Positions 39,165-63,950 of a DNA stretch of 64,000 nt are shown in pieces; position 1 is the stretch's first letter; each line of letters opens with the position of its first letter. The translations under genes and the position numbers were made by a program. The notes beneath the pieces were generated by a model. The model saw nothing but the letters and a program-made list of their open reading frames with translations. It ran no database searches and was not told where the DNA came from. The DNA comes from a virus. The stretch spans positions 32,001-96,000 of the IMG/VR virus record IMGVR_UViG_3300008216_002531. One strand, 5' to 3'.

Positions 39165-39630
39165 GATAATATTTTCTCGTTCTTTGTATGATTTTTCGAA
39201 CAATATGCTTAATTTGTCCTTTTGGACAAGACAGTTTTTCGGCTATCTCTTTGTGTGTATAGTTTTCGGACTTCATTTTTAGTACCAATTTTTCTTTTTC
39301 GCTCAGGCAATCTGGTATTAATTCCCACAACTCTTCTTTTGTTGTATACCAGTTATCTTTTTTGAATGAGGCATTTACAGACTTCTTTTTGTTTTTCCTC
39401 ATATACCTAAAGATTTCATTCCTTACGCAAACAGTGGCAAAAGTAGAAAATTGGCTTTTTTCGGAATCATAATTTCTTATGGCTTTTATAAGACCTATGA
39501 AGCCCACTTGCATGTAGTCTTCTAGATCGTTTTTGTGAGAAGCCAATCGAATAGCCTGAGAAACAACCAGCCCATAATGCTTATTGACTAGCTGACTCTC
39601 AGGATCTTCGACTGGATTTTCATATGTCAT
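39136..39630 (-). CDS. RNA polymerase sigma-70 family factor (regions 2 and 4 only)
   Basis: EDYMQVGFIGLIKAIRNYD...FSTFA..CVRNEI (region 2); LSEKEK.VL...YTHKEIAEKL (region 4 HTH). Confidence 0.9.
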   Translation of the reverse strand: MTYENPVEDPESQLVNKHYGLVVSQAIRLASHKNDLEDYMQVGFIGLIKAIRNYDSEKSQFSTFATVCVRNEIFRYMRKNKKKSVNASFKKDNWYTTKEELWELIPDCLSEKEKLVLKMKSENYTHKEIAEKLSCPKGQIKHIVRKIIQRTRKYYREEKEDTSM

Positions 39631-40017
39631 TTAAAATGGGGCGGCGTCAGATCGCGCTTGTGAAGTTACTGGTTCTCGCTCTTCATTATCGTTTTGAAAT
39701 CTATTATTGAAAAGCTTGAATTTATTTACTCGAAACTTAATCTTAGATCTACGATTTCCATCCTTATCCGTCCACTTGTCTTGGCGAGCGCAAGCCATTA
39801 CAGCTATTTCGTCTCCCTTTGAGCAGTATCTATCAATTGTAGTCGCTCCGCTATCCCAAGCCTCAAAATCAAGATAATCGACTTTCTTGCTCTTTTCTCC
39901 ATCTTTTGATTTACGATACTCGTTAACAGCGAGGGTGAACCTAACTACCGAAGTTTCATTAACATCGGTAAGCTCTGGGTCTTGAACCAAGCGACCTATA
40001 AAGTGACAATTATTCAT
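39631..40017 (-). CDS. ssb: Single-stranded DNA-binding protein
   Basis: MN.CHFIGRLV.DPEL...F.LAV...W.DKDG..RS; acidic C-terminal tail ending DAAPF. Confidence 0.93.
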   Translation of the reverse strand: MNNCHFIGRLVQDPELTDVNETSVVRFTLAVNEYRKSKDGEKSKKVDYLDFEAWDSGATTIDRYCSKGDEIAVMACARQDKWTDKDGNRRSKIKFRVNKFKLFNNRFQNDNEEREPVTSQARSDAAPF

Positions 40018-40020
40018 TCT

Positions 40021-40596
40021 CTAAAGTCCTTCCATTAAAAAAGCCAAGTGGATTAACTCGTAACCCTTAGATACATTCTCTTTGTCTGCTAGATCTAAAA
40101 ACTCATTCGTAAACTCTGGGTAAGCCGCATAAAATATGTCTACTAATTTTTCCTCCAGCAACACTTGTTTTTCGTCATTTGGTGGTTTGATTAAATCAAT
40201 AAAAGTTGAGTCAGGACCAAGTTCTTCTCCTTCTACATTGTAGTAGATAATAAACTTCGTCGAGAGTTTTAATCTCTCTGTTTTCATCAGAATGTCTTGA
40301 AAAATAATTATTCTAGAGGCATAGGCAGGACAGTCGATGAATACTGGCTTGGTGCTTTCTGAAGAATAATAATGTACGCCTGAAGGCAGAGGGTCTTCTT
40401 GAATCTGATATATGCAAATAGTTTCTTGTTCGTCTTGATCAACAGTTTTTTTAAGAGGGAAAGTAACAGCGCACCCAATGCCATCAAAATCAGAGGCGAC
40501 GACTTTGACAACATAGTCGTGTTCTTTGAAGAAATTTACGAGCGCCTGATTATCCATCCTGTAACCTATAAAACGCGCAAGGGGCGTTTTTTGCAC
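40021..40596 (-). CDS. Hypothetical protein (191 aa)
   Basis: ORF between dnaE-C and ssb; no recognisable motif. Confidence 0.5.
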   Translation of the reverse strand: MQKTPLARFIGYRMDNQALVNFFKEHDYVVKVVASDFDGIGCAVTFPLKKTVDQDEQETICIYQIQEDPLPSGVHYYSSESTKPVFIDCPAYASRIIIFQDILMKTERLKLSTKFIIYYNVEGEELGPDSTFIDLIKPPNDEKQVLLEEKLVDIFYAAYPEFTNEFLDLADKENVSKGYELIHLAFLMEGL

Positions 40597-42281
40597 TATA
40601 TTTGGGAAACTTTTTGCACAATAAAACCGTCGTCGATCTGGTATCGCCTCTTACCACGAGACAATTCCCCGGAGGACTTTCCGTAAAGCAAAACTGTATT
40701 GCCCTCATACAAAAGCCCTTTGTGTTTTTTCCATTCGTCGCAAAACACAGTCACTGTTTCTAGACATCCGGTATTGTCCTCCACAACCAAGAACCCCATA
40801 GGGCTTCCTTTTGACCGTCCATTTTTTACAACATACTCATTAACATTAGAAACTTGCACTGCTAAAATTATATTACCACGTTTGCCGTCAAAAAACTCTT
40901 TACATGTGGAATTTGACCCGCTCGCATCACAAGAGTCTACTTCGCTGTAGCTTAGCGCTATTCCCAAAGTTTCTTTTTCTATATTGGACACCCACCCCGG
41001 ACTATCTTCCAAGGAATAAGGAGGATTTTTCAATAGCAGAACTAGACTTTCAACAATAGAGTTTCTTGTGGTGTTAAATGTTCCACCTCCATTCTTTTTG
41101 GTGGGAGACAGTTTAGACAAAGCGTCGGCTAGACACTCCCACTCCTCCTGTCTCTCAACCACCCACTCTTTCTCCTTATCTGTTAGTTTCTGCCATGTTT
41201 CAAATTCGTACAACATCCTGCTCCTACTCATGCCAAAATGGGACATGGACCCCACAGACACAAGAGAAACCATTATGTTTTTATTGATTTTATGAGACGT
41301 ATTGACTAAAAATTGATACCATGACCAGTCTGCTATTGGTTTTGATAGACTGCTCTCCACGGAGTCTATTACTTGTATCAATTTTTCCACATGTTTTTCT
41401 CCAACAGATTTTATATCGTTGAATCCAAAGTTTATGACTTTATTTCTAATGCTAAACTTGGAATCCATATTGACGACAGAAGGAGGGGAAACTTGTATGC
41501 CTGATATTTTAGCATCCCTTATTAGATCTCTGACTTCAGACTGGGGATCTTGTTTTCCATTAGCGTAAAATAAATAGTTACAGTAGAAATTTATAGGAAA
41601 ATGGGCCTTGGCGTAGGCTGACCAGTAGGCGCAAACAGCATAAGAAACTGCGTGGCTTTTGTTAAAAGCATACCGGTTGGACTTTTCAATCCATCCAAAA
41701 ATTTCTTCGGTCACTTCGCTAGTAACGATTCCTTTACTAGAGGCTCCTTCTAGGAAAGACTCCTTTACTTCTGACATGAGGCCAGCTTGTTTTTTGCCGA
41801 TAGCTTTTCTCAAGCCGTCTGCTTGTTGCAAATCAAAGCCCGCTATAACCTGAGCTATTTGCATGCTTTGTTCTTGATATACTAGCACCCCTTGAGTAGA
41901 CTTTAGGATAGGCTCCAAGGAATCGTGTAAATATGAAACCTCTTCCGATCCATTTTTTCTGTCTACATAGTGCTGTGTCATTGACTTGCCGTCAATAATA
42001 GCTTTTAGACATCCCGGTCTAATAAGAGCAATAAGAGCGGCTAACTCCTCAATGTTTTTAGGGCGGATTCTTTTTGCCCAAGATTTTCCCAAATTACTTT
42101 CTAGTTGAAATACACCTTTGGTTCTCCCGGTAGATATCAAATCCCAAGTCTTGTCACAATCGTAACCGCATTGGCTGATGTCAAAGCGAGTAGACGGCAA
42201 TCCGGTTTGCGACAACGTGGTCGGGTGATCTGGGTCTAGAACTTCAAAAGAACACCCGCAATCAAATTCGTAGTTTTTCAT
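40596..42281 (-). CDS. dnaE: DNA polymerase III alpha subunit, C-terminal half (fingers, HhH, OB fold)
   Basis: TKGVFQLES, ALIRPG, LVYQEQSMQIA..IAGF...AD.LRKAIGKK, YAFNKSHA..Y, EKETLG, OB fold M.FL..ED.TG. Start probably ATG 42281. Confidence 0.93.
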   Translation of the reverse strand: MKNYEFDCGCSFEVLDPDHPTTLSQTGLPSTRFDISQCGYDCDKTWDLISTGRTKGVFQLESNLGKSWAKRIRPKNIEELAALIALIRPGCLKAIIDGKSMTQHYVDRKNGSEEVSYLHDSLEPILKSTQGVLVYQEQSMQIAQVIAGFDLQQADGLRKAIGKKQAGLMSEVKESFLEGASSKGIVTSEVTEEIFGWIEKSNRYAFNKSHAVSYAVCAYWSAYAKAHFPINFYCNYLFYANGKQDPQSEVRDLIRDAKISGIQVSPPSVVNMDSKFSIRNKVINFGFNDIKSVGEKHVEKLIQVIDSVESSLSKPIADWSWYQFLVNTSHKINKNIMVSLVSVGSMSHFGMSRSRMLYEFETWQKLTDKEKEWVVERQEEWECLADALSKLSPTKKNGGGTFNTTRNSIVESLVLLLKNPPYSLEDSPGWVSNIEKETLGIALSYSEVDSCDASGSNSTCKEFFDGKRGNIILAVQVSNVNEYVVKNGRSKGSPMGFLVVEDNTGCLETVTVFCDEWKKHKGLLYEGNTVLLYGKSSGELSRGKRRYQIDDGFIVQKVSQI

Positions 42282-42942
42282 CGGCCAGAGCCTTTTCAAA
42301 TTTTACCTTGGGAGCAAAATGTCTATACAGCTTAAGAAATTTTATCAGGACAGACGCGGTATCTTTCACGTCTTGCAGAGCGTCGTGCGCATTGTCTTTA
42401 GGCATTCCCATCCAATCTCTAATAGAATCCATGCTGACGCTTCTTATATCTGGATTGTTTTCAGTCCACATGAATACATTATTCATTAAGTCCATACTAT
42501 GGATAGTGTGAAACAACCCCTGCTGGTTTCTTTTTTTATTCATAGGACCGTATTCTCTACATAAACGATTTGCGATAATCATATCGAAATTATTTATATT
42601 GTGTCCGGCGGGTATTGGAGCCGTCCAACTACCCTTTTTATAATTAAACCTGTCTACGAATTTAGTAAATCTATCCCACACCGTTTTTAAATGTGGGGCT
42701 TTTGCTAATTCGGCTCTAGTTTTTCCATTTACAGCTAGGGCCTCTTCTTCTAAGGGGTCTAATCCAGCAGCTACCGCTTTTTCATCCCCTAGTGGCTTGA
42801 TCAGAGATTCAAAATATCCATTAGGTTGTACAGACAGTCTACGACCGTGTATCATTACGGCGGCAATTTGTACTGGTTGAGTTGTCAGTGGGTTTCTACT
42901 GCCTGTTTCAAAATCAAACACACAGATATCATTATAATTCAT
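42262..42942 (-). CDS. DEDDh 3'-5' exonuclease (DnaQ/epsilon-like)
   Basis: VFDFETG (ExoI), GHNINNFD (ExoII), HDALQD (ExoIII); directly upstream of dnaE-C. Confidence 0.9.
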   Translation of the reverse strand: MNYNDICVFDFETGSRNPLTTQPVQIAAVMIHGRRLSVQPNGYFESLIKPLGDEKAVAAGLDPLEEEALAVNGKTRAELAKAPHLKTVWDRFTKFVDRFNYKKGSWTAPIPAGHNINNFDMIIANRLCREYGPMNKKRNQQGLFHTIHSMDLMNNVFMWTENNPDIRSVSMDSIRDWMGMPKDNAHDALQDVKDTASVLIKFLKLYRHFAPKVKFEKALADEKLRI

Positions 42943-44032
42943 CTACAGAGTCCTCTTCTTTTTCAACTAAAAATTCCATCTTATTATTGAAATCTTCAAA
43001 CGATAGATCTCCATATCTTAGTGTTTGGCGAGAAAATAATTTGTCATATTTTCCTTCTGCAATAAGCGAGGCCGCACAAGCAGCGCCATATCCTGTGCAA
43101 CGCTGCATGGCTGAAAAGTTTTCGTCTGGCGGAACGAGTAGTTCTTGAATTTTTTCATCAATAGATATGTAGATAATAACACAGTCTTCTACTTGATGTT
43201 TTGCACAACTTTTTGTGAAGATCTTTTTAAGAGTTGGTCGATCCAGTTCGCATTCTTCGATTAGCAACTTAATGGTTTTGAGATGTCCCGGCCACCTAAG
43301 AGTCTTATATGAAACATGAGTAGCTCCCAAGTTTTTAAGGCTGTGGACGCTATAAGATGATCCCCCGCTTGTATAAAAAGCTTCTAAAACCCCCAAGCTC
43401 TGAGTGGAAACAGTTTCATAGCCTTCTAGAGACTTAACAGAAGTTATCTCTCCGTTATTTAAGATTGTAGAGTTTTCTGTGTATTCATTAATAAGGCCAT
43501 CAAGAGACCAGCTACAAAAATAATTAAAATGATCGTCTTTAGAAGCTCTTCGAGGTAGTCCTCCAACCATTATATTTACTGTTTTTGGTTTTTTTTCATC
43601 TTCTTCGGCAATCTGCTTGTATAGATTTTCTGTAAGTATGTTTGCTAATCCGGGGGCCAAGCCTAAATCTGTCATTACTGGTTTAGATCCGTTGCTGACA
43701 GCAAAGCTATTAATATATTCGCTTACTTCTTCATTGCCACCAAGATCACAATATCTAATTCCATTCTTTATGCAATATCTAGCAACATCTTTGTTGTTGT
43801 AATATGGGAGAGCAGAAATCACAACGTCTGGAAAGGGTCGGGATATTGATTTTGATATGTGGCCTTCTAATTTTGGGATACAATGTGTTTTTGCCGATTG
43901 GCTTAAAAAAGAATTGCATTTGTCCAATGCTTCTTGAGATAGGTCTACTAGTTCTAGCTCGTAGCCAAGTCTTTCCATAGCCCAAGCCGTAGATTGACCC
44001 ATTCTTCCAGCACCAAAAATAATAGCTCTCAT
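42932..44032 (-). CDS. Saccharopine dehydrogenase / lysine 6-dehydrogenase family oxidoreductase
   Basis: IFGAGRMG, VISALPY, YCDLGG, DLGLAPGL.N, VGGLP, WS.DGLINEY, EAFYTSGG, YKTLRWPGH, SAMQRCTG. Confidence 0.88.
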   Translation of the reverse strand: MRAIIFGAGRMGQSTAWAMERLGYELELVDLSQEALDKCNSFLSQSAKTHCIPKLEGHISKSISRPFPDVVISALPYYNNKDVARYCIKNGIRYCDLGGNEEVSEYINSFAVSNGSKPVMTDLGLAPGLANILTENLYKQIAEEDEKKPKTVNIMVGGLPRRASKDDHFNYFCSWSLDGLINEYTENSTILNNGEITSVKSLEGYETVSTQSLGVLEAFYTSGGSSYSVHSLKNLGATHVSYKTLRWPGHLKTIKLLIEECELDRPTLKKIFTKSCAKHQVEDCVIIYISIDEKIQELLVPPDENFSAMQRCTGYGAACAASLIAEGKYDKLFSRQTLRYGDLSFEDFNNKMEFLVEKEEDSVDEL

Positions 44033-44868
44033 TGTACCGCTCTCCCCTTAAGTTCTTCCCAATCTTTTTCTGGCCTAACCACCAAGTTGGTGTCCCACGC
44101 CCCAATTAGAGTGTTGGGAGATATTCCAAAGTCTGCTGCGTGTTTTATGATAGCGTTGAGATCTTTTGGAAAACAACTTCCGCCGAACCCCAGACTTCCA
44201 TCTGGGCCGGGAACCGACCAGTGAGAGCCTCCCAGTCTCTCGTCGTGTATAGCATACTCAATCACCTTGTCGTAGTCAACTCCGTTCGCTTCGCACATAG
44301 CGGAGAATTCGTTTGCTAGCGACACTTTAGCCGCTAAGAAGCAATTGGTAAGATACTTAACATACTCTGCTATAGTTGAGTCTGTTTTTATAATAGAAGC
44401 CTTCGGAAAGATGTTGGCGTAAAATTGCTTTAGTCTTGTGGTGGCTGGTCTAGGGCCACCCAGAATAACACGGGTAGTGTTACGAAAATCTTCCGCCGCG
44501 TTTCTTTCTAGTAAGAATTCTGGGTTGAATACTACTTGAGAGTCTTGGCACATCTCATTAATAAAGGAGGTGGTGCCCGGAGGAACTGTAGATTTAATAA
44601 CTATGATATTTTGTCTGCCAGTTCCACACGCTTCCAAACAAACAGTTTTTACGATTGAGGTATCGCACGATCCATCTAGCTTCATTGGTGTTGGAACACA
44701 TACAAACACCACGTCGCAATCATGGGATAAGTCTGTTATTGTTTTATGCGTTGATAGATCTGCATGTGCTTTATCATAAGTGTATACCTTATTGTAACAA
44801 GAGAAGACTTCGGTCAGCGCCGACCCTACAAACCCCTGTCCTATTATTCCTATTGCTCTTATTTTCAT
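44029..44868 (-). CDS. UDP-glucose/GDP-mannose dehydrogenase family protein lacking the C-terminal domain
   Basis: IGQGFVG, FVCVPTP, IKSTVPPG, FNPEFL, KY..N.FLA.K, GFGGSCFPKD (catalytic Cys). Start moved to ATG 44868 (ATGA coupling). Confidence 0.88.
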   Translation of the reverse strand: MKIRAIGIIGQGFVGSALTEVFSCYNKVYTYDKAHADLSTHKTITDLSHDCDVVFVCVPTPMKLDGSCDTSIVKTVCLEACGTGRQNIIVIKSTVPPGTTSFINEMCQDSQVVFNPEFLLERNAAEDFRNTTRVILGGPRPATTRLKQFYANIFPKASIIKTDSTIAEYVKYLTNCFLAAKVSLANEFSAMCEANGVDYDKVIEYAIHDERLGGSHWSVPGPDGSLGFGGSCFPKDLNAIIKHAADFGISPNTLIGAWDTNLVVRPEKDWEELKGRAVQ

Positions 44869-46073
44869 AGATTTTCTACAGCCTCTTTTATATATTGACA
44901 CGCTACATCCGCGTCCTCTTTAGAGAATGTAAGAGCGGGTCTAAGTCTAATTGATCTACTGCCGCATTTTAATACGAGCATATTTTCTTGTAACAACTCT
45001 ACCATTCTATCTCGAAGTTCTGAGGATGGCAGATCAAACGCTATCATGAGTCCTCGCCCCCTTACATTGTCTATTTCGCTTATACTTCTAAGACACCATA
45101 ATAAATGAGAGCCTACATCGCTAACATCAGCAATCAAATCTTCCCTGTTGATGGCATCTACTATATAGTTAAATCTAACCATATCAACTATATTGCCACC
45201 CCATGTAGAATTTATTCTGCCACTAGTATTGAAGACGTTGTGTTTTACTTCATCAATTCGTTCAGTAGAGCAGAAACCACACACCTGAGTCTTTTTGCCA
45301 AAGCACATCATGTCAGGAACAACGTCGAAATGTTCGTAGGCCCACATCTTGCCAGTTAGCCCCATGCCAGTCTGCACTTCGTCAAATATAAGAAGACACT
45401 CGCGCTCATCAGCTATGCGTCTTAGATTTTTGAAAAACGCTACCGGAAAATGATTATCTCCACCCTCACCCTGTATCGGCTCTATGATAATCGCAGCAAC
45501 TTCTTCGTGGACACGGCGTTCGATGTCTTCCCAATCAGGCTCTACGGTAGTCCATCTAAACTTTGGGAACAGGGCGGTCTTTTCTGGGGTTGTATTGGTC
45601 AAAGAGAGTGTGTAGCCTGTCCTGCCATGAAAAGCGTTCTTGAGATGGAACACATCTAGGTTGTTAATATCAACCGTATGGATATATTTTAGTTTCTTGG
45701 CCTTCCAGTCAAATGCGGCTTTGAGGGCGTTTTCTACCCCAAGAGCGCCACCATCAATGAAAAAGTAGTGTTTAAAATCAGGAGTAATTTCAGAGAATTT
45801 CTCTACAAATTCAGCATAAGTACTGGAATACATATCACTATTAGCAAGCTTAACTCTTCCAGCCACGCCCATTTCGTTTTGTGCTTTTATTAATGCAGAA
45901 TGTCCCCACCCCAATGGCTGACTGGCAAATTGTGAATAGCAGTCTAAGTATTTCTTTCCTGTGTTTAAGTCTATAATATAAGAACCAAGGCTCTTCTGTT
46001 GGTCTACGACTACATGAAAACCGTCAACAAGTATGTGGTTCTTTAGCGTGTCTATAGCTTTAATGTCAGGCAT
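44865..46073 (-). CDS. lat: L-lysine 6-aminotransferase-like class III aminotransferase
   Basis: HILVDGF, K.ANSD.YS, FFIDGGALGVENALKAAFDWK, AFHGRTGYTLSLTNT, EPIQGEGGDNHF, DEVQTG, FGKKTQVCG, RINSTWGGN; these match the Lat subfamily. Confidence 0.9.
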   Translation of the reverse strand: MPDIKAIDTLKNHILVDGFHVVVDQQKSLGSYIIDLNTGKKYLDCYSQFASQPLGWGHSALIKAQNEMGVAGRVKLANSDMYSSTYAEFVEKFSEITPDFKHYFFIDGGALGVENALKAAFDWKAKKLKYIHTVDINNLDVFHLKNAFHGRTGYTLSLTNTTPEKTALFPKFRWTTVEPDWEDIERRVHEEVAAIIIEPIQGEGGDNHFPVAFFKNLRRIADERECLLIFDEVQTGMGLTGKMWAYEHFDVVPDMMCFGKKTQVCGFCSTERIDEVKHNVFNTSGRINSTWGGNIVDMVRFNYIVDAINREDLIADVSDVGSHLLWCLRSISEIDNVRGRGLMIAFDLPSSELRDRMVELLQENMLVLKCGSRSIRLRPALTFSKEDADVACQYIKEAVENL

Positions 46074-46852
46074 TTAACCGCTCCTCCCGATTTCATAAAT
46101 TCTGACATATCGCATATAGATGTCTTTTTACCAGAAAACGATAAGGAAAACATATCTGATGGGGTCACAACCGTCTTATTTATTTCAATACTGTTACAAA
46201 GAAAGTCTTGCGCTTGCTCTTCATGAACATTTAATACGTCAAGAACTCCTATTTCATGGCCGATCTCCATTAGCTTTTCCAAAATTCTTTCTTGGCTGAA
46301 CCTAGAAAAGGCTTGTTGATGATAAACAACTCTATTTTTCAAAGGAAGAAAACATGTGTCCAAATGATAGAATCTTGGATCAACTAATTCACAGGACACG
46401 ACATCAACTTTGAGAGTTTTTGAGATAATTTCGTGGGCTTCCGGGTCAGTTCTAAATCCATAGCCCATGAACAGGGTATTTTCAAAAAATAGGGCGTCTC
46501 CCTCTCCCTCAAAGCAAATGTGGTCTGGGATTTCAATTACTCTATAGCCGTGTTTTAGAAACCAATCTTTAAAGAACCACTTCTCGTCTCGTCTTTCCTG
46601 ATGTCTAAAATTTGATAATATCACTGTGTCTCGGTATACTAGTCCTGCGTTTGCGGTAAATACCATGTCGGGGTATCCACGCTCAGGCTCAATAAAGCTC
46701 AGTCTGGCTCCCGTTTTAGACAAAAGATCAACCATTTTCTCCCACTGGGAAAGAGCTAGGGCGGGATCGATATCATTATCAATATCCATCCAAGGATTGA
46801 TTTCGTAGTCTATATTAAAATATGTTGGTTTACACAGTAAAAGATCTGTCAT
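46052..46852 (-). CDS. Amidinotransferase-fold enzyme, similar to the arginine dihydrolase domain of ArgZ/AgrE
   Basis: C.P.YF.IDYEINPWM, PDMVFTANAGL, FEGEGD, GYGFRT, FYHLDTCF, EFMKSGGAVKCLT (catalytic Cys). Start moved to ATG 46852. Confidence 0.85.
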   Translation of the reverse strand: MTDLLLCKPTYFNIDYEINPWMDIDNDIDPALALSQWEKMVDLLSKTGARLSFIEPERGYPDMVFTANAGLVYRDTVILSNFRHQERRDEKWFFKDWFLKHGYRVIEIPDHICFEGEGDALFFENTLFMGYGFRTDPEAHEIISKTLKVDVVSCELVDPRFYHLDTCFLPLKNRVVYHQQAFSRFSQERILEKLMEIGHEIGVLDVLNVHEEQAQDFLCNSIEINKTVVTPSDMFSLSFSGKKTSICDMSEFMKSGGAVKCLTLKL

Positions 46853-48339
46853 TTGCTCCCGGTGCTCATACCTTGTGGAAAGTTCAGAGAGTCTCCATGA
46901 TTGACCGTCCAAGCCACTTCATGAGTAACGGACCTGAATGTACGAGCGGCGCTGGGCTGTCCGTTTCCAGACTTTTTCACCCCTCCAAATCCAAGATGAG
47001 ATTCAGCAGCAATACTGCCGCCATTCCAGTAGCCAAGACCAAAATCACATTCGTTGCGAATGCGTCGAGCAACCTTAAAACTTTCTGTTACTACGCCAAG
47101 AGCAAGCCCATAGTCAGTGTCATTGTAAATCCTAATAGCATTATCAATTGTATCGTAAGGAATAATTGACACATGCGGCCCGAATACTTCTTGCTTAAGA
47201 TATGGAACATCTCTCCACTCCGTTTGATATACCGTGGGTGTTAAAAACAAGCTATCGCCATCTCTCTCTCCCATTAGCAGAACATCCGCCTCTGGGTCCG
47301 CTTCGACCATCTTGTTAAACTCTATGACTCTTTCGAGTTGCTTTTCATTAATAAGAGGGCCGTAGAAGGTGTTGTCGTCGAATGGGTCTCCAGTCTGTAG
47401 ATCACCACTTCTATTGGCAAATTCGTCTGCAAATTTGTTGTATAGAGAACGATGAACAATTAGCCTGCTAGCAGACACACAACGTTGACCAGATAGTTTG
47501 TAAGCACTAGCCAAGCACGCGGCCATTGCCATGTCATAATTCGCATCTTCATGAACAATTACTGCCGATTTACTTCCCATCTCACAAGAACAGGTTTTGT
47601 GCCAGCTTTCCGCACAGACTTTACGAACATGCATTCCTACGTCGGCGCTTCCAGTGAAGCAAATATGATCCACGTCTTCGTGAATTAGATCATCTCCGAC
47701 TTGTCCATCCCCATGAATCATATTGAAAACGCCCGGCGGAAAACCAGCTTCTCTGTAAAGCTCCGCAGTAATCTGGCCAACCCAAGGTACATCCTCGCTC
47801 GGCTTAAGAATTACAGTATTCCCTTCAACAAGAGCAGGAGCAGCGCACCAAAAACCACCAATCGCAAAAGGAAAATTAAAAGGCGCAATGATCGCAACGA
47901 CCCCTTTTGGCTTCCTAAGCATAAACGCATCTTTTTCTGGCAACTCCGAAGCAATCGCTTCACCATAAGGCATCCTCCCTGTACTAAAGGCATACTGAGC
48001 CATGTGCAACGCTTCGTTAACTTCGGCAACAGACTCGTTAAAAACTTTTCCTGTTTCTGTGCTTATAATTTCTGCAATATGGTCTTTGTTTTCTTCGATT
48101 AACTTTGCAACCTTAAGAAAATATTCTGCTCGTTGAAATCTGCTAAGACTTCTCCATTCACCAAAGGCCTTCTTAGCGGACATATAAGCGGTTTCTACGT
48201 CCAGCAGAGATGCTTGCGGAAAAGCCCCCACGATTGTTCCTGTGGCCGGATTAATACTGTCAAAAAGAGACTCTTCGTCTCCATCAATGAATTGACCATC
48301 AATGTAATGTAATCCCTTTACGATTTGATAAGTTGTCAT
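46849..48339 (-). CDS. NAD(P)-dependent aldehyde dehydrogenase (candidate aminoadipate-/glutamate-semialdehyde dehydrogenase)
   Basis: PFNFP, LKPSE, FTGS..VG, EMGSK, SGQRC (catalytic Cys), EVFGP, FGGVKKSGNG. Confidence 0.93.
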   Translation of the reverse strand: MTTYQIVKGLHYIDGQFIDGDEESLFDSINPATGTIVGAFPQASLLDVETAYMSAKKAFGEWRSLSRFQRAEYFLKVAKLIEENKDHIAEIISTETGKVFNESVAEVNEALHMAQYAFSTGRMPYGEAIASELPEKDAFMLRKPKGVVAIIAPFNFPFAIGGFWCAAPALVEGNTVILKPSEDVPWVGQITAELYREAGFPPGVFNMIHGDGQVGDDLIHEDVDHICFTGSADVGMHVRKVCAESWHKTCSCEMGSKSAVIVHEDANYDMAMAACLASAYKLSGQRCVSASRLIVHRSLYNKFADEFANRSGDLQTGDPFDDNTFYGPLINEKQLERVIEFNKMVEADPEADVLLMGERDGDSLFLTPTVYQTEWRDVPYLKQEVFGPHVSIIPYDTIDNAIRIYNDTDYGLALGVVTESFKVARRIRNECDFGLGYWNGGSIAAESHLGFGGVKKSGNGQPSAARTFRSVTHEVAWTVNHGDSLNFPQGMSTGSK

Positions 48340-48860
48340 TTTGAGTCCTTTGTAGATTCCATTAAATTTTTCACTGAGTTTTGACAGAAGCCCTTTTGGC
48401 CTCGCTCTATTAGCTCTATGATTACCCCGCCTAGATGTGGCAGAGGTTTTGTAAATATTTGCCTGAGTTCATCTTCAGGACAGTCAATAATTTCTTCCGT
48501 GAGAAATTCTACCCCATTATCTCGCCAGTCTTTTACTACGCGGTCTATTCCAAACACTTGATATGCAAAATGGTGCACTCCTCCAACGCCTCCCCTGTCG
48601 GCCACCCATTGCCCCACAATCGAGTTCTCGTCCCCGTCTGATATAAACACTTCTGGAGCAACATGTCTGTGTCCTCCAGCCTCTATGGTGGGAACATTGT
48701 TCATTTTTTCTTTAGGGGTCATCGCAATACATTCAGCCTTGGAGCCGTCATCGAAAACGATATCGAACTCAGTTCCAATTTTATACTGGAGTATTGCGCT
48801 GAGAAAGCTAGCGGTTTTTTGTCTATCTGAAACTCTATAGGCTATATGATCCAATCTCAT
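48336..48860 (-). CDS. VOC-superfamily metalloenzyme resembling the catalytic domain of HPPD / HglS-type 2-oxoacid dioxygenases
   Basis: LDHIAYRV...GGVHHFAYQV...LRQIFTKP...IIELIER..KGF...V..LMES; His/His/Glu triad present. Confidence 0.75.
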   Translation of the reverse strand: MRLDHIAYRVSDRQKTASFLSAILQYKIGTEFDIVFDDGSKAECIAMTPKEKMNNVPTIEAGGHRHVAPEVFISDGDENSIVGQWVADRGGVGGVHHFAYQVFGIDRVVKDWRDNGVEFLTEEIIDCPEDELRQIFTKPLPHLGGVIIELIERGQKGFCQNSVKNLMESTKDSK

Positions 48861-49084
48861 CTATATAGCTTCCTTTTTATATCTACGTACTGTTCTACAG
48901 CTTTGTTAAGATCTTCGTATAATTGACTGAACTTAAATCTATAATCGTCGCAGTCCACTTGATATCGGGCGCCTCGGGCGCCTGAATTGCGCAAGTAGTC
49001 ATTTATGCAGCACAATGACAGTCTATTGCACTCAACTGATGATCCATCTTCTAGCACTCTTGTATAAATATCTGTTTTGGTCAT
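48857..49084 (-). CDS. Hypothetical protein (75 aa)
   Basis: ATGA-coupled to the dnaE-N stop and to the VOC gene. Confidence 0.55.
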   Translation of the reverse strand: MTKTDIYTRVLEDGSSVECNRLSLCCINDYLRNSGARGARYQVDCDDYRFKFSQLYEDLNKAVEQYVDIKRKLYR

Positions 49085-51000
49085 TTGATTATTCCGGTAG
49101 ATAATTGATTAGATACTCCCATGATTTTATCCAGAAAACTGATGCCAAGAATATCAAATTTAACATGGCCCATCGCCTCCAAATCTTGCATCTCCAAACC
49201 CGCGATCTTTTCAGATCCTCTTTTTTCCCTAACCATTGGACACACTTCGCTTAAGTTTTTAGAAGAAATCACTACGCCAGCCGCATGCTTACCTTGAGAT
49301 TTATATGTTCCTTCAAGCCTAATAGCTTGCCCAAACAATCTGCTTAATTCCCCGCTAAGACTGCCATCGTCTTCTATACGACACCATTCTTTAAGTTGTT
49401 CTGGTTGGTTTATCAAAGCCCATCTTATAATAGAAGGGTCTTCCATTTCTTGTAATTGGTCTGAAATTTCTGCTTCAGATGGAATATTTTTGGTGATATA
49501 GTTCATCTCTTCAAAACTGCAAGCGTCGTGTACGCGCAGAACTTCTTTCAGAGATGTGCGACCTTGCATTCGCCCAAGCGTCACCATTTGCCCCACATTC
49601 TCTTTGCCGTATTTTTGACGCATATACTCAATAACGCGCGCTCTTTTTTCGGTGGGGACATCAATATCAATATCTGGAAGAGAAACATGGTCTTCGGTAT
49701 TACGCCCAGCATTGTAAAATCTTTCAAAGATTAGACCGTACTCTATTGGGTCTACCTCTGTTATACCAATCAAGTGTGAAATAAGGCAACCTGCGGCAGA
49801 ACCTCTTCCCGGTCCCGGCAGCCAGCCCTGCTCCCTTACATGGTTTACTATGTCTTGAACTATAAGAAAATATCCTGACAAATTTGCATCCTGTATAACC
49901 GAGAGTTCCTCTTTGATTCTTTCGGCATATAATTTCGAATTAGTTTCTTCTGACGCCTTGCCAGTGTCGGCTATTTTACTTTGCCAGCCATGTCTGCATA
50001 AAGATCGTAAATATTCATCTTCAGACATATTGTCCGGGCAAGAAAATTTAGGGAGCATGGGTTTGCCTAATATGTTGTATTCTTCGCACATATCAGCAAT
50101 TAGCTTGGTGTTGTAGATTTCCTCGTCAGTATTTATAACTTGAATTTCTTCTTCTGAGGGGATGTGATATTTGTTTGAGCAAAAGAAACCGCCTAAGCCA
50201 ACGTCTTCAGAATTGTTAAGCTTTTGCTCTACCTTCTTTAGAGTTGTCCGCATCGCAGAACACAAGAGCACTCTTTGGTCTGGGGCGTCTTCAGAGGAGC
50301 AATAGTGAGAGTCTGCCGTAGCTATACAGGGTATGCCGGTTTTCTTGCTGATATACCTTAAGGCTTCAGCGGTTATTCTTTGGGAGGGACACTGGTCTTG
50401 ATCTATCAATTGTATTTCTAAAAAGAAATTGTCCTTGCCGAAAATGTCTCTATATTTTTCAGCCAGCAGAGTAGTTTTGCTAAGCCAGTCTACATCAATA
50501 TATTGTTTCGCCTCTTCGTAAGTAGCCGCACCATAGGCAGACTTTTTGTCAGCAAATATGATATCTGCAAGTTGGCTTCCTATATGTCCAGAAAAGCTAA
50601 TTAAATTTCCGTCACAGTATTCGGCCAGTGTGTCCAGATCTAATCGTGGCTTGTGGTAAAAGACTTCCTCGTCATTGCTGGCAGAGGTAGCTTCTATCAG
50701 CTTTGTCCAACCCTCTAGATTCTTAGCCAGAACTACCAGATGACTAAGCTTCCTATTGGTTTTATCTTTTACGCAGGGGTCTTGGTCACATAAATAAAAC
50801 TCGCAACCTAAAATGGGTTTTATATTTTTTTCTTTCATCGCCCTGACAAACGAGACGGCCCCTGAGATCGTCCCATGATCGGTCACGGCGCATGCATCGT
50901 ACCCAAGGTTCGAGCAGCGTTCTGCGACCTGTGAGGGCTTCGAGAGACCGTCCAGCAAACTGTAGTGGGTGTGCAAGTGTAGAGGAGTCCAAATTGGCAT
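49081..51000 (-). CDS. dnaE: DNA polymerase III alpha subunit, N-terminal half (PHP, palm, thumb)
   Basis: LHLHTHYSLLDG, TDHG, DSHY, GPGRGSAAG, FERFYN..R, PDIDID, HAAGVVI, KFDILG. Confidence 0.95.
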   Translation of the reverse strand: MPIWTPLHLHTHYSLLDGLSKPSQVAERCSNLGYDACAVTDHGTISGAVSFVRAMKEKNIKPILGCEFYLCDQDPCVKDKTNRKLSHLVVLAKNLEGWTKLIEATSASNDEEVFYHKPRLDLDTLAEYCDGNLISFSGHIGSQLADIIFADKKSAYGAATYEEAKQYIDVDWLSKTTLLAEKYRDIFGKDNFFLEIQLIDQDQCPSQRITAEALRYISKKTGIPCIATADSHYCSSEDAPDQRVLLCSAMRTTLKKVEQKLNNSEDVGLGGFFCSNKYHIPSEEEIQVINTDEEIYNTKLIADMCEEYNILGKPMLPKFSCPDNMSEDEYLRSLCRHGWQSKIADTGKASEETNSKLYAERIKEELSVIQDANLSGYFLIVQDIVNHVREQGWLPGPGRGSAAGCLISHLIGITEVDPIEYGLIFERFYNAGRNTEDHVSLPDIDIDVPTEKRARVIEYMRQKYGKENVGQMVTLGRMQGRTSLKEVLRVHDACSFEEMNYITKNIPSEAEISDQLQEMEDPSIIRWALINQPEQLKEWCRIEDDGSLSGELSRLFGQAIRLEGTYKSQGKHAAGVVISSKNLSEVCPMVREKRGSEKIAGLEMQDLEAMGHVKFDILGISFLDKIMGVSNQLSTGIIK

Positions 51001-51001
51001 T

Positions 51002-51553
51002 TCAGCGTCCTACTGGGTCAAGATCCTTGTATGGCATGTTGTAACAATCTGTGGAAGGTTTCCACCTATTAGAATGATCCATGTCATCCTTTACCCAAAA
51101 GCGGGCCTGTTCAAAGTATTCCTTTGCGTCCTTTTGTCCACAAATCCAAGCCCTGACAGGCTTGTTGTTCTTAAATTGTATACTGGTAAAGATGTATATA
51201 TCCGGTTTTTGATGCGCGCTGGTTTCTGCTACAGAAGCATCGTAATGATCTAGAGGAGGCACAGACCTTCTTTTAGATTTGACTTCAATTTTTTTACCGT
51301 CCTTTATCAAATCATGATTGTACTTCTCCTCACCCTCATTATTGCTGATTATCTCGGCTTGGATGTAATCGGCAACGATCTCCTCCCCGAGATAGCCAGC
51401 AAAATTCCCCTTGCCCTCAAGGATGGAATTATTTATCACACCTAAATTATCAGCCTTAACCTTACAACTCTCTACCATTTCATCGGTAAAGTAGACTTGA
51501 ACAATATTACTTTTTTTTGTTGAACTTTTCATAAATGTATCGTGCTGTCGCAA
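51002..51553 (-). CDS. Hypothetical protein, possible PD-(D/E)xK nuclease
   Basis: G.LGE..VA.Y...Y.HDL..DG.KIEVKSK pattern; true start uncertain. Confidence 0.5.
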   Translation of the reverse strand: MRQHDTFMKSSTKKSNIVQVYFTDEMVESCKVKADNLGVINNSILEGKGNFAGYLGEEIVADYIQAEIISNNEGEEKYNHDLIKDGKKIEVKSKRRSVPPLDHYDASVAETSAHQKPDIYIFTSIQFKNNKPVRAWICGQKDAKEYFEQARFWVKDDMDHSNRWKPSTDCYNMPYKDLDPVGR

Positions 51554-52460
51554 CGTCCTCTATCGCTAGTCCTGTGGCGTCGAATAGTGTTGTCCTACAT
51601 CCGCTAGTTTCTACCCTGCCCTGAATCACTTCTGCTATCGGACACCATATTTGAGAAATCTTATTCTTTTTAGCATACTGTATTTCTCCAGAATGGGAGC
51701 ACTGTGCCCACTCATCATACGCAACTAGATCAACATTTTCAAGAACGCACGGATGCAGTTCTCTTTTTCCTTCTGCGTCTGCTCCAACAGCATTAATATG
51801 AACTACAGGTTTGAGATATCTATACTCAATAAATGGTTGACGTGAAGGGGTTAGCGTTGTAATTATATCCACGTCCCACAAACAATTTTCAAGATCATTA
51901 TGAACTTCTATTTCTACAGGGCTTCCCTGCCTAACTTCTAAATAATTCAATTCATCTTTTAACTTATTTGCTCGTTCTTCACTGAGGTCAAATAATCGAA
52001 CAACCTCAATGTCTCTTACGGCAAGGACCGCTTCTATCTGCCTGAGTGTTTGATTTCCGCAGCCGATAAACGCTGCTTTTTTGGAATACTTGGGGGATAA
52101 GTATCTGGTTGCCACTCCAGTCACTGCGGCGGTACGAATGGCGGTAAGAGTTTCTCCGTCTAAGATTGCTAATAGTTTTCCAGAAGCCACATCGTTTATA
52201 AGAACCTTAGCGAATATGTTAATTTTGCGCTTTGTTCCTGTTTCGTCTAGGTGTACTCCACACCATTTAATCCCCGCCGTATCTCCTACAACCGCTGGCA
52301 TAGATCTGAAATCGCCATTAGGTATGTCCATATACACTTTTGGCGGCATCTGTGTGTTTTCAATGTTTATAAATAAGTCTTCAACAACTTCTATGCATTC
52401 TGGAACTGATAGTATCTGCGCTACTTCGTCGTTTGTAAAGTATTTAACCGGGAGCATCAT
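51507..52460 (-). CDS. Ornithine cyclodeaminase / mu-crystallin family protein
   Basis: MPPKVY...GDFRSMPA, LTAIRTAA, FIGCGNQ, HINAVGAD..GKREL, FDATGLAIEDVA. Confidence 0.9.
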   Translation of the reverse strand: MMLPVKYFTNDEVAQILSVPECIEVVEDLFINIENTQMPPKVYMDIPNGDFRSMPAVVGDTAGIKWCGVHLDETGTKRKINIFAKVLINDVASGKLLAILDGETLTAIRTAAVTGVATRYLSPKYSKKAAFIGCGNQTLRQIEAVLAVRDIEVVRLFDLSEERANKLKDELNYLEVRQGSPVEIEVHNDLENCLWDVDIITTLTPSRQPFIEYRYLKPVVHINAVGADAEGKRELHPCVLENVDLVAYDEWAQCSHSGEIQYAKKNKISQIWCPIAEVIQGRVETSGCRTTLFDATGLAIEDVATARYIYEKFNKKK

Positions 52461-53466
52461 AATACCCTATATTGAAGTCTGGTTTGGTACACTCTGCGCT
52501 TGTCCTTTCAATACCATTCTTTTTGATATGATCTTGCACATATCTACAGATGTTGGTATCTGTACCTTCCCAGTTATTCTTATAATAATCGCAAAGCTTA
52601 GTGCACTTCCAATGCGACTGGCTCTGTGACAATAATTTAGGGCTTTTATTGTTCTTGATTTCGTTAAATCTTTTTCTGAGCATCTTAAGAAATAATTCTT
52701 TAGACCCATCATCAAAGCACAGAGAAAATGGTCCTCCATCTTTTACATAGAAAATGGTCATTATCGCCTGATCGTAATCAGGATACAGCTTGGATATGGC
52801 GTAGTAATAGAGAAGCAATTGCGGGTCACTCTCTAATTTATTATAGTCCTTTTCTTCGCCTGTGGCCCAATTAATTCTTCTACCAGTCTTCCAATCTACA
52901 ACTTCTATAACTCCGTCTTCGGCTTCTGTAACTAAATCTATAGTTCCTTTTATGGCCAGCTTACCCTTTAACTTTGTGCCGTCATCAAGAGTGTAGTCGT
53001 ACTCTGCCCAAGGCTCATCTATCTCTATGTCGAAGTGAGGCTCAGTGTCTACAATCTTTCTGTTTCTGGGGTCAAACTGACCATCATTATAATGCAGACC
53101 CAGCCACGTCCATTTGCGGCATTCGTTTTTTTCTTTGTCTGTATATTCATGGACGCAGTTGGAGGTGTAGTGTTCGAAACTTTTATCTACTATTTTGTTA
53201 ACAAACTCTTCTGAGTATAGTTTGCTACTAGTGAATGTAATCCTTCCAAGTGCGTCGTCTGTGACGCTCATAAGCCCAGACTCTGGAAGGCTCTGGAGCC
53301 TTTTTTTGCACGACGCCAGACACTCCATCACCTTATGGACGATGGTTCCCTGCTGGGCTTTTTTACCTGACGTTGAGGGGAAACCCAAGACATAATTTAT
53401 GTAATACTGCTGCTGACAGTAATCATAACTATTATATGACGAACTTCGTATATAAGCTACGAGCAT
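52444..53466 (-). CDS. Cas4/RecB-like PD-(D/E)xK exonuclease
   Basis: [38 protein letters not shown]-terminal C...C...C cluster. Confidence 0.85.
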
Positions 53467-54089
53467 TTATTCCACTCCAAGGCTTCTGATATGATTGGGA
53501 ATTCTTCCCTAAAGAGGCCCTTGATTTCATTTGCAATGTCCTGATGCTCTTTCTGAGTTGATAGGTCTGTTCGCAGTTTTATATAATGAATCCAGCTTCT
53601 AACTGTTCCATTCATATACATGCGAGTCTTGGTGCTCAACGGCAATAAAAATCTAGCGCTTTCTTTGGCTATCCCTCTCTCTAATGCTTCTTCGTACAAG
53701 TCGTGTGTTGCATCTTGTATTCTTTGATGTGTGTATTCAAACCAAGTCTTGGTATTTTCAGACAGATCGTCAAAAGAGTTTTGCCTGTTCTTGGTGTCTT
53801 GTCTTCTTGGCTTGACATATTCAAACCCCTGCGCCTTTGCGTATCTTTGACTGAATTCCTGAAAAGAGAAGCTGCGATGTCTGAGGATTTGAGCAGCTAT
53901 TCCTCTAGTTGTGTTGATTTCAACAACCATGTTTGCCATTTCAAAAATAGACCAGTGTCCATGTTTGATACAGAACTTAAGTAAACCAGACACCTCTGGG
54001 TTGTCTTGATTTTTAGGGTTGCTCACTCTGGCGCAGTAACCAATGGTTTCTTCTGCGTCAGGAGTAATGGAAATAAGCTTAACTTTCAT
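53457..54089 (-). CDS. thyX: Flavin-dependent thymidylate synthase
   Basis: [35 protein letters not shown]...TQKEH. Start moved to ATG 54089. Confidence 0.95.
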
Positions 54090-54808
54090 ACAGGCTCTAG
54101 CCATCCCCATCCTGCGAGAATGTTTAGTAGCTCCTTTGACTGTTCTTCAATGGCCATGTCTTGGTTATCGATTACGGCGTCAAACCCCTCGTAAGTATCG
54201 AGAGCAATTTCACTAGCGTGAGAATCGTCATGGGGCGCTCTGGTAAGGCGAATTACTTTGCCGCCAGCCTCTTGTATCGCTTCTACCTCGTCTGGAAACC
54301 TACAGTCTCCCACAAGAGCCAGAGCGCTCTGTTCTGATTGAATTTGATTGATGCAAAAATCCACCCATACGTCTTCTTTGAGCGATCTGCAAACATCAGT
54401 ACCAAAGTATTGAAGAAACTCTCTGGCTGTAAAATCTTTAATCGGAGATGGAGTATTCTTTTGTTTTTCAGACCCATAGCATTGTTCGTATTTTAGTCCG
54501 AAAAAATTAATGGCTATAGACTTTAGAGAATCAGCAAAGTTATAGGCTTTAACAAAAGGCCACACATTCATAGAGCAGTATTGAACAAATCTGGGTTCTC
54601 TATTGTTGAGATCTAGTACTCCCATCTGTTGAATTTCTTCGCCCTTCTCATCCATAAACGTAGCGTTTACAGACAACTGGCCTCTGTCATCTAAGAGAAA
54701 CTTTTCAATTACTTGATTTCTCTGCAACTCATAGCCATGCAGGAAGTTTATACATGTGGTTTTACCGGCTCTTTTATGACCGCTGATGGCTAGGATTTTT
54801 TGAGACAT
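54086..54808 (-). CDS. Deoxynucleoside monophosphate kinase (phage type)
   Basis: [41 protein letters not shown]. Confidence 0.88.
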
Positions 54809-63543: not shown

Positions 63544-63950
63544 GATTGTATTGGATTGCCATATCTGTCTTTACCTTCTAGATTAGACACTTCTTCCCAA
63601 ACGTCTGACCAGCCAGATTCGTCGTCTGAACGAACCCTAGCGGCTTTGTCGTCTATATAGATGACGCCAGCGGGTTTGCCCATGTAGGCGTGATGATATT
63701 TAACGCCGTGGTCCTCCAGCCAGTCTGTCCACTCCCTATATCCGCGTCCATATTGACGATGGATGTTTCCCTTCTCTCTGTCTCCATACCTAGCGGTATA
63801 TAACGTAATAACAAAACCCATGTCATATAGCTTATTGACTTGATCTATGCCGTGTTGTAAAGGACCAGCCTTGCTATAGTCTCCACCGTGGTTTTTATCC
63901 GCTATTACACCATCACAGTCCACTATTAGTGTCTTAAGTGAATCGGCCAT
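63540..63950 (-). CDS. HAD-superfamily phosphatase (capsule-biosynthesis/IIIC-like)
   Basis: IVDCDGVIA, LYTARYG, WL..HGVKY, GKP....YIDDKA; GGAGG SD. Confidence 0.85.
   Translation of the reverse strand: MADSLKTLIVDCDGVIADKNHGGDYSKAGPLQHGIDQVNKLYDMGFVITLYTARYGDREKGNIHRQYGRGYREWTDWLEDHGVKYHHAYMGKPAGVIYIDDKAARVRSDDESGWSDVWEEVSNLEGKDRYGNPIQS

Follow-up and report, generated by a model that had tools for sequence, protein, structure and literature searches.

A candidate cassette for basic amino acid breakdown among the replication genes of an uncultured marine phage

What role could a tightly packed block of amino acid enzymes play in the middle of the replication genes of a virus? This question is raised by a 64,000-nt stretch of the IMG/VR record IMGVR_UViG_3300008216_002531 (record positions 32,001-96,000; hereafter the window, within which coordinates are given), where a VOC metalloenzyme, an aldehyde dehydrogenase (ALDH), an ArgZ-like guanidino-group hydrolase, a LAT-like aminotransferase, a truncated UDP-glucose/GDP-mannose-dehydrogenase-like (UGDH-like) protein and an L-lysine-6-dehydrogenase-like (LysDH-like) protein are encoded one after another. 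With middling confidence, we read these genes as a phage auxiliary metabolic cassette that would be co-transcribed with replication and dNTP-synthesis genes and would break down basic amino acids. This reading draws on the family-level homology of every enzyme, on the Asn, His and Cys motifs kept by the ArgZ-like protein and on LAT motifs matching those of M. tuberculosis LAT. It also draws on a fixed ALDH-ArgZ-LAT order in loci with differing flanks, with LAT always directly after ArgZ, on the substitution of LAT-like and LysDH-like genes for each other, on the pairing of ALDH with LAT in cells, and on the single overlapping unit that the cassette forms with ThyX, dNMP kinase and the replisome.

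Conservation and setting of the cassette

Scans of IMG/VR with the ArgZ-like and LAT-like proteins yielded 17 cassette loci for comparison. The block order across these loci is VOC-ALDH-ArgZ-LAT-UGDH-like; ALDH, ArgZ and LAT occur in all 17, VOC in 14, the UGDH-like gene in 13 and the LysDH-like gene in seven. The co-occurrence in related phages that a real module would be expected to show is seen for the ALDH-ArgZ-LAT core, and ArgZ in this module always has LAT directly downstream. Flanks of most cassette loci have no detectable similarity to the replication genes of the window. An ornithine cyclodeaminase (OCD)-family gene was found only in the loci of close relatives and in locus L023.

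A VOC-profile scan of IMG/VR retrieved 108 viral stretches. ALDH directly follows VOC in 53 of 79 loci, a LysDH-like gene lies 0-5 kb downstream in 38, and VOC stands alone in about one third. The neighbours of the VOC-ALDH-LysDH-like trio are RecA, DnaB, primase, ClpP, GMP reductase and PD-(D/E)XK nuclease genes. This trio is the commoner form in marine phages; ArgZ plus LAT, with or without the UGDH-like gene, is an insertion variant, and the cassette is an expansion of the trio. Among loci with enough downstream sequence, four carry both LAT and a LysDH-like gene, ten LAT only, 30 a LysDH-like gene only and two neither, counts that come from related loci and hence do not form an independent sample. 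The more distant cassette carrier G133, a 161-kb contig with a completeness rating of 100% and a gene for a large terminase subunit, encodes LAT, and its genome is devoid of LysDH-like genes. LAT and LysDH-like genes thus largely replace each other, which suggests that their products perform the same step.

The minus-strand genes of the window form a single long run from about 64 kb down to 17 kb. From 57 to 39 kb, genes for DnaB, primase, a 204-aa open reading frame (ORF), dNMP kinase, ThyX, an exonuclease, the OCD-family protein and a 183-aa ORF are followed by the N-terminal half of DnaE, a 75-aa ORF, the six cassette genes in the order given above, a DnaQ-like exonuclease, the C-terminal half of DnaE, a 191-aa ORF, SSB and a sigma factor (Table 1). 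All junctions from the first DnaE half through the second are overlaps of 4-38 nt, mostly ATGA, and the cassette, ThyX, dNMP kinase and replisome genes form one overlapping-gene unit. The starts of the ArgZ-like and UGDH-like genes were placed at the ATG within ATGA at 46852 and 44868, giving 266 and 279 aa, in agreement with homologue lengths and the Atlas record.

An earlier interpretation made from the DNA letters (the sequence-only reading) had described a translationally coupled minus-strand run from VOC through ALDH, an amidinotransferase-fold enzyme, a LAT-like enzyme and a UDP-sugar dehydrogenase to a saccharopine/lysine dehydrogenase. Every one of these genes is present where it had been placed, stop and start codons overlap at each junction as the claimed coupling implies, and its fold and family calls are correct. 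It was also right to locate an OCD-family gene about 2.6 kb upstream (2,647 nt from the end of this gene to the start of VOC) and to set the whole among phage replication genes, as the flanks consist of replication and nucleotide genes (primase, DnaB, RecA, ThyX, dNMP kinase, SSB and the split DnaE). No tRNAs were found in the window, a scan for promoters and terminators matched their consensus sequences only inside genes, and the virion-side ORF at 548-2206 had no match among phages.

Table 1. Positions of the cassette genes, their accessory partner and neighbouring genes in the window
Feature	Coordinates	Strand	Profile match or remark
OCD/mu-crystallin-family NAD(P) enzyme, 317 aa, accessory partner	51507-52460	-	PF02423, 240 bits
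183-aa ORF	51002-51553	-	no family match
DnaE N-terminal half (PHP and polymerase core), upstream insertion border	49081-51000	-	PF02811, PF07733; TIGR00594 positions 1-568/1022
75-aa ORF between DnaE N-terminal half and VOC	48857-49084	-	no Pfam or PHROG match
Single-domain VOC metalloenzyme, mini HPPD/HMS-like, 174 aa	48336-48860	-	PF13669, PF00903
NAD(P)-dependent aldehyde dehydrogenase (ALDH), 496 aa	46849-48339	-	PF00171, 431 bits
Stand-alone ArgZ-like guanidino-group hydrolase, amidinotransferase fold, 266 aa	46052-46852	-	NF052232, 249 bits
LAT-family class-III aminotransferase, 402 aa	44865-46073	-	TIGR03251, 468 bits
Truncated UGDH-like protein, 279 aa	44029-44868	-	PF03721, PF00984
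LysDH-like amine dehydrogenase, saccharopine-dehydrogenase fold, 366 aa	42932-44032	-	PF03435, PF16653
DnaQ-like 3'-5' exonuclease, part of downstream border	42262-42942	-	PF00929; phrog_192
DnaE C-terminal half, downstream border	40596-42299	-	phrog_405 positions 628-1074/1190
Phage sigma-70-family factor	39136-39630		same overlapping gene run as cassette
SSB	39631-40017		same overlapping gene run as cassette
ThyX	53457-54110		same overlapping gene run as cassette
dNMP kinase	54086-54808		same overlapping gene run as cassette

The viral setting assumed for the module stands, and no isolated phage carries it. As in other auxiliary metabolic gene clusters of phages, metabolic genes of cellular type are found here in bona fide viral genomes and recur in relatives. 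Near-identical DNA is present in marine metagenomes from many studies. None of 50,697 phage records matched the region in a megablast search, and the closest cultured phages are remote (DnaE at most 35% identical, DnaB at most 28%). Protein searches found no cultured-phage orthologue of the ArgZ-like, LAT-like, VOC, LysDH-like or OCD-like proteins, the exceptions being the uncultured huge phages LR756511/LR756504. Eight short contigs of an oligo-dT RNA library (X20) fall on LAT, ALDH and VOC at 90-100% likeness; DNA carry-over is possible, and they are not counted as proof of expression.

Additional genes accompany the block in other loci. Two cassette variants without the UGDH-like gene have a class-I fructose-bisphosphate aldolase gene (PF00274, 349 bits) that separates LAT from the LysDH-like gene; its coordinates are 12038-13006 in L005, 11649-12713 in L023 and 1550-2524 in L003, it lies a few kb away in other loci and it is absent from the window. 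Some variants encode a 121-aa SET-domain protein between ALDH and the ArgZ-like protein (L022 8857-9222, L015 4188-4553), and a volactin-like actin homologue (PF25216, 250 bits; L151 10362-11417) is found between ALDH and the aldolase in one viral contig group. Several trio contigs have a SpeD/AdoMetDC-family gene as the immediate upstream neighbour of the LysDH-like gene (L207 10119-10472, L177 6504-6884, L173 11459-11878). The window itself encodes a small HAD-like phosphatase with the motif DCDGVIAD (63549-63950, minus strand) that is 70-84% identical to the product of the gene directly before VOC in nine other cassette loci, and more distant copies (about 30-35% identical) adjoin the LysDH-like gene in trio loci. 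LAT and VOC lie far apart (L028, L204) in the 533-kb IMG/VR contig 3300049215_000771.

The two ORFs of DnaE leave no visible room for an intein, and the entire N-terminal half matches model positions 1-568. The exonuclease alone separates the halves in L024 and L053, where the cassette lies 3 kb away, so the dnaE split is older than the present position of the cassette. The 183-aa and 75-aa ORFs are kept only in the closest relatives, which for the latter are L001, L002 and L017.

Family placement of the encoded enzymes

The ArgZ-like protein scores 207 bits against the N-terminal domain of Synechocystis ArgZ (Sll1336; PDB 6jv0) versus 36 bits against DDAH-1, and it is about 40% identical to cyanobacterial ArgZ across its whole 266-aa domain. 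Its motifs INPWM, PDMVFTANAG, FYHLDTCF and GGAVKC align with those of Sll1336, and the motifs with Asn (TANAG; mutated in PDB 6juz), His (YHLDTC) and Cys (KCL) are retained by every phage copy compared in a 46-sequence alignment and in the alignment with 6jv0/6juz. The proposed identity with the arginine dihydrolase domain of ArgZ/AgrE holds as far as these motifs are concerned, but not in profile score or phylogeny. On NF052232 (arginine dihydrolase) the protein reaches 249.2 bits, below the cut-off of 450, whereas cyanobacterial proteins reach 525-542. In the tree, the phage copies form a clade of their own (support 100/98), within which two unnamed metagenome proteins fall, and the cyanobacterial ArgZ clade (100/100) lies on the opposite side among stand-alone cellular homologues. 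A cyanobacterial origin or cyanophage identity was ruled out by this tree. More distant viral ArgZ-like proteins (L006-L010) are found in unrelated, uninformative contexts.

By far the best solved relative of the LAT-like protein is M. tuberculosis LAT (PDB 2cin; 346 bits), versus 159 bits for GABA-AT, 115 for putrescine aminotransferase and 111-122 for the AstC/RocD type. Its motifs FHGR, QGEGG, FGKKTQVCG, NSTWGGN and RLRP align to 2cin, with the pyridoxal phosphate lysine and the substrate motifs retained. In 2cin, the FHGR arginine binds the substrate carboxylate. The earlier Lat-like assignment stands with respect to closest relative and motifs but does not reach the level of the TIGR03251 model (cut-off 520.8), on which the window protein scores 467.7 bits and other phage copies 480, compared with 633-656 for cellular LATs. 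Cellular homologues are 45-51% identical to phage LAT and belong mostly to the FCB group and neighbouring phyla. ALDH is encoded directly upstream of LAT in 32 of 80 cellular loci, sometimes with an adjoining acyl-CoA dehydrogenase gene, so ALDH plus LAT is a native catabolic unit; none of the 80 loci has an ArgZ-like or VOC gene beside LAT.

The ALDH has the catalytic Cys (GQRC) and the general-base Glu (CEMGSKS) and is roughly equidistant from many ALDH subfamilies, its top NCBIfam matches all scoring 297-323 bits and each falling below its cut-off. By its scores it is not of the Pcd/AmaB or PruA type. On NF050084 (P6C/aminoadipate-semialdehyde dehydrogenase) it reaches 271 bits with a cut-off of 730, compared with 811-825 bits for the ALDHs beside cellular LAT, and on the P5C-dehydrogenase models PRK03137 and TIGR01237 it reaches 304 and 283 bits with cut-offs of 648 and 660. 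Judged by these models, it is clearly distinct from the P6C dehydrogenases found with LAT in cells. AstD models give 291-297 bits (cut-offs 514-579), and aminobutyraldehyde and betaine-aldehyde dehydrogenase models, at 312-313 bits, match as well as any other.

The model of the LysDH-like protein (pLDDT 88) has P. horikoshii L-lysine 6-dehydrogenase PH1688 (3abi) as its top Foldseek match (E 1e-24, target-normalised TM-score 0.80-0.82), ahead of the saccharopine dehydrogenase domain of AASS, carboxyspermidine dehydrogenase (1e-17) and homospermidine synthase (1e-10). With a sequence score of 83 bits in addition, PH1688 represents the closest relative in both fold and sequence among enzymes of the saccharopine dehydrogenase fold. 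Carboxyspermidine dehydrogenase and homospermidine synthase identities were ranked down by the fold search. Among solved structures, the product of the OCD-family gene scores highest with alanine dehydrogenase of A. fulgidus (1omo, 181 bits), followed by pyrroline-2-carboxylate reductase (6t3e, 126 bits), versus only 76 bits for P. putida OCD (1u7h), and its scores on all NCBIfam OCD models lie far below the cut-offs; it resembles alanine dehydrogenase more than the ornithine cyclodeaminase proposed for it earlier. A homologue lies 110 kb away from the cassette in G133, and others adjoin the LysDH-like gene in L023 and L143. Both the saccharopine-dehydrogenase-fold gene and the OCD-family gene are accessory to the cassette.

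The VOC protein matches TIGR01263 (4HPPD; E 1.3e-9) in its C-terminal part and TIGR03081 (methylmalonyl-CoA epimerase; E 3.8e-8), and carries invariant His5, His96/97 and Glu149. Its structural model gives the best query-normalised TM-scores to HMS/HPPD (0.71-0.72) and the best E-value to the epimerase, and the HMM and fold searches together place it between methylmalonyl-CoA epimerase and HPPD/HMS. With 174 aa, one domain and 38 bits on TIGR01263 versus a cut-off of 277, it does not qualify as an HPPD or HMS enzyme. The C-terminal motif LRQIFTKP...IELIERG.KGFC..S...LMES, which resembles that of HPPD, aligns locally with HglS sequences; no Pfam match to HglS (PF07063) was obtained, and hhalign gave probabilities of 3.1% and 5.7%, over the C-terminal motif only.

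The UGDH-like protein has the N-terminal Rossmann motif GIIGQGFVG, the catalytic GFGGSCFPKD and the catalytic Cys/Lys/Asn/Asp region, and lacks the C-terminal UDP-binding domain of three-domain UDP-glucose 6-dehydrogenases (PF03721 and PF00984 only; TIGR03026 188.5 bits, cut-off 189.8). The sequence-only reading had recognised this gene and bracketed it off from the module, yet it is a syntenic core member. Its product may be a sugar-metabolism passenger. The Atlas contains many clusters of UGDH-like proteins of about 280 aa, nearly all viral; the family, with members of about 280-320 aa, lacks the UDP-binding domain and retains the catalytic Cys. The short form also lies beside a nucleotide-sugar epimerase gene in the Kyanoviridae-class phage C48C1 (L217 3983-4942).

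Proposed pathway and rival explanations

In the pathway suggested by homology and gene order, the ArgZ-like hydrolase would convert arginine to ornithine, two ammonia and CO2. The LAT-like enzyme could then move the terminal amino group of ornithine and/or lysine to 2-oxoglutarate, giving glutamate and a semialdehyde, or the LysDH-like enzyme could remove the same amino group oxidatively, releasing ammonia and giving the semialdehyde; homology and the mutual replacement of the two genes across phages point to this step. ALDH would probably oxidise the semialdehyde to glutamate or 2-aminoadipate, with formation of NAD(P)H. More speculatively, the OCD-family, alanine-dehydrogenase-like enzyme might deaminate an alpha-amino acid or reduce a cyclic imine, and the mini HPPD-like VOC might oxidatively decarboxylate the resulting 2-oxo acid, which could extend the lysine branch from 2-aminoadipate through 2-oxoadipate to 2-hydroxyglutarate; the VOC may instead be an epimerase. 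Gene order, in which the ArgZ product would feed LAT, favours ornithine as the substrate, and the LAT and LysDH homologies favour lysine; both may be used. We infer that the cassette releases nitrogen, and on balance nucleotide synthesis would gain reducing power and nitrogen in the form of ammonia and glutamate. Such a supply role for DNA synthesis would fit transcription of the cassette together with the ThyX, dNMP kinase and replisome genes.

A bolder proposal, to which we give only a small chance, is that the trio of mini HPPD/HglS-like VOC, ALDH and LysDH-like enzyme forms a virus-specific route from lysine or ornithine to 2-oxoglutarate made of non-orthologous parts, that the 165-190-aa VOC represents a new minimal family of 2-oxo-acid-decarboxylating oxygenases, and that the cassette of the window adds an arginine entry through the ArgZ-like and LAT-like enzymes. 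Host basic amino acids, for example those of ribosomal proteins, would then be turned into ammonia, glutamate and NAD(P)H for phage DNA synthesis.

Several observations weigh against assigning the cassette to basic amino acid breakdown. The ArgZ-like protein, the LAT-like protein and ALDH all score below equivalog cut-offs, so their substrates may have shifted. On the Mtb-type dimethylargininase model, the ArgZ-like protein reaches 233.5 bits (cut-off 300), nearly its score for arginine dihydrolase, and phage LAT lacks about 25 residues present in cellular LATs. Of two conserved members, the scheme gives VOC only a speculative step and the UGDH-like protein none. Homologues of VOC (49%), ALDH (55%) and LAT (56%) are dispersed, at 195, 320 and 504 kb, in the huge uncultured phage LR756511.1 (595 kb).

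The cellular types of the enzymes, and a GC content slightly above that of the flanks (0.42-0.43 versus 0.39-0.42), could hint at a host fragment joined to a phage contig by misassembly, a concern already raised in the sequence-only reading. Both borders are, however, halves of one dnaE with overlapping ORFs, the same arrangement of DnaE N-terminal half, cassette, exonuclease and DnaE C-terminal half occurs in three IMG/VR contigs from different samples (L001, L002, L017), and ArgZ lies beside LAT in no cellular locus examined. GC content and skew are smooth across the region. The cassette is also carried inside G133, a viral contig rated complete that has a terminase gene. Since independent marine metagenome contigs bridge the junctions (run X3, records covering 40000-43976 and 48456-50943; run X7, records at 41875-42716, 43203-44608, 45453-47004 and 48249-49097, bridging junctions on both cassette sides), misassembly is excluded for practical purposes, and we regard its probability as negligible. 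It is rather improbable, too, that no common pathway exists and that independent auxiliary metabolic genes came to stand side by side through shared descent and block transfer. Many loci do belong to related phages, as they share further genes (HAD phosphatase, GT4), VOC often occurs alone, and the homologues in LR756511.1 are more than 100 kb apart. Yet strict order and gene overlap persist although the replication genes of the loci are no longer detectably similar, LAT follows ArgZ every time, LAT and LysDH-like genes complement each other, and the pairing of ALDH with LAT exists in cells too.

Two other explanations accept a common pathway and give it a different purpose. In a polyamine or diamine module, an enzyme of the host or phage would first decarboxylate ornithine or arginine, putrescine, cadaverine or spermidine would be deaminated by the LysDH-like or LAT-like enzyme, and ALDH, as an aminoaldehyde dehydrogenase, would form GABA or 5-aminovalerate; in another variant, the LysDH-like enzyme could couple an aldehyde and an amine reductively into a polyamine. 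Such a role would agree with the SpeD/AdoMetDC-family gene (PF02675, E 9e-11) that precedes the LysDH-like gene in related loci (immediately in L173, L177, L207 and L209), and arginine and ornithine decarboxylases are among the SpeD homologues of marine phages (PMC9992855). The ALDH scores on the aminobutyraldehyde and betaine-aldehyde models would agree with it as well. We nevertheless consider it unlikely, as no SpeD-like gene was found in the window, the LysDH-like fold is far closer to 3abi than to the two polyamine enzymes, and the LAT-like protein scores 115 bits with putrescine aminotransferase versus 346 with LAT and keeps the FHGR arginine, presumably for carboxylate binding. A biosynthetic module, in which proline, pipecolate, 2-aminoadipate or an opine-like derivative would decorate glycans, virions or DNA together with neighbouring glycosylation genes, seems to us quite improbable. 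It could account for the UGDH-like gene as a syntenic core member and for the glycosyltransferases and cytidylyltransferase that recur near the cassette, and enzymes of the OCD family and saccharopine dehydrogenase fold are able to act reductively. Against this, an ArgZ-type reaction is an irreversible hydrolysis, ALDH would drain the aldehyde needed by a reductive route, the commoner trio lies among replication genes with no glycosylation genes adjoining, and truncated UGDH and an epimerase occur in another marine phage without amino acid genes.

Most auxiliary metabolic genes known from phages relate to photosynthesis, carbon flux, phosphate, sulfur and nucleotides. Literature searches found no description of a module like this one in a virus, in agreement with the sequence-only reading, which knew of no such multi-enzyme auxiliary module in a phage. 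If the cassette does break down arginine and lysine, ocean viruses in nitrogen-poor water would have, in this conserved set of enzymes, a new means of securing nitrogen and reducing power for DNA synthesis, and the flow of nitrogen within infected cells would shift. Three mainly or only viral families also come to light in the cassette, namely the 165-190-aa HPPD-like VOC, the truncated UGDH-like protein and the stand-alone ArgZ-like hydrolase, all of which are small, soluble and easy to assay.

Comparison with known systems

A survey of virus-encoded nitrogen and polyamine metabolism described decarboxylases, arginase and spermidine/homospermidine enzymes (Li et al. 2023; PMC9992855). These enzymes, too, are carried by phages, often by marine ones, and their substrates are arginine or ornithine, as proposed for the cassette; a text search of that paper for aldehyde dehydrogenase, saccharopine and glyoxalase drew a blank. 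Cyanobacterial ArgZ (Sll1336) and AgrE (Alr4995; PDB 6juy, 6lrf) have the same fold and active-site motifs as the phage ArgZ-like protein and carry out the first step from arginine through ornithine and proline to glutamate. Unlike these proteins, whose ORFs have 705-742 aa, the phage hydrolase stands alone without a fused C-terminal domain, and it has ALDH before it and an aminotransferase after it rather than being coupled to PutA. L-lysine 6-dehydrogenase PH1688 is the best match of the LysDH-like protein, yet identity is only 23-24% and the phage gene, unlike that of PH1688, is located in a phage replication operon. HPPD and HglS share with the phage VOC the His/His/Glu ligand pattern and the C-terminal E..ER...GF..N....ES motif, and rice HglS (6w1k) is a structural match with a query-normalised TM-score of 0.63. 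However, HPPD/HMS and HglS, the latter part of a route from lysine to 2-oxoglutarate, have about 300-390 aa compared with the single domain of the phage protein, and methylmalonyl-CoA epimerase matches equally well by E-value.

The bacterial route from lysine to 2-aminoadipate through LAT and P6C dehydrogenase (Pcd/AmaB) likewise has an ALDH gene upstream of a LAT-family gene. The phage enzymes differ from it in score (271 versus 811-825 bits for ALDH on NF050084, 468 versus 633-656 bits for LAT), and the ArgZ-like gene sits between ALDH and LAT, an insertion seen in no cellular locus examined. The Roc pathway of Bacillus (RocF-RocD-RocA) and the AST pathway of E. coli and Pseudomonas (AstB-AstC-AstD) both combine removal of the guanidino group, a class-III omega-aminotransferase and a semialdehyde dehydrogenase that leads to glutamate, and AstB also has the amidinotransferase fold. 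The phage cassette would work without the succinylation of AST and without the arginase or urea of Roc, its aminotransferase is of the LAT family and not of the AstC/RocD type (111-122 bits), and its ALDH lies at 291-297 bits versus AstD cut-offs of 514-579. The three-step logic proposed for the cassette is nonetheless the same as that of the Roc and AST pathways.

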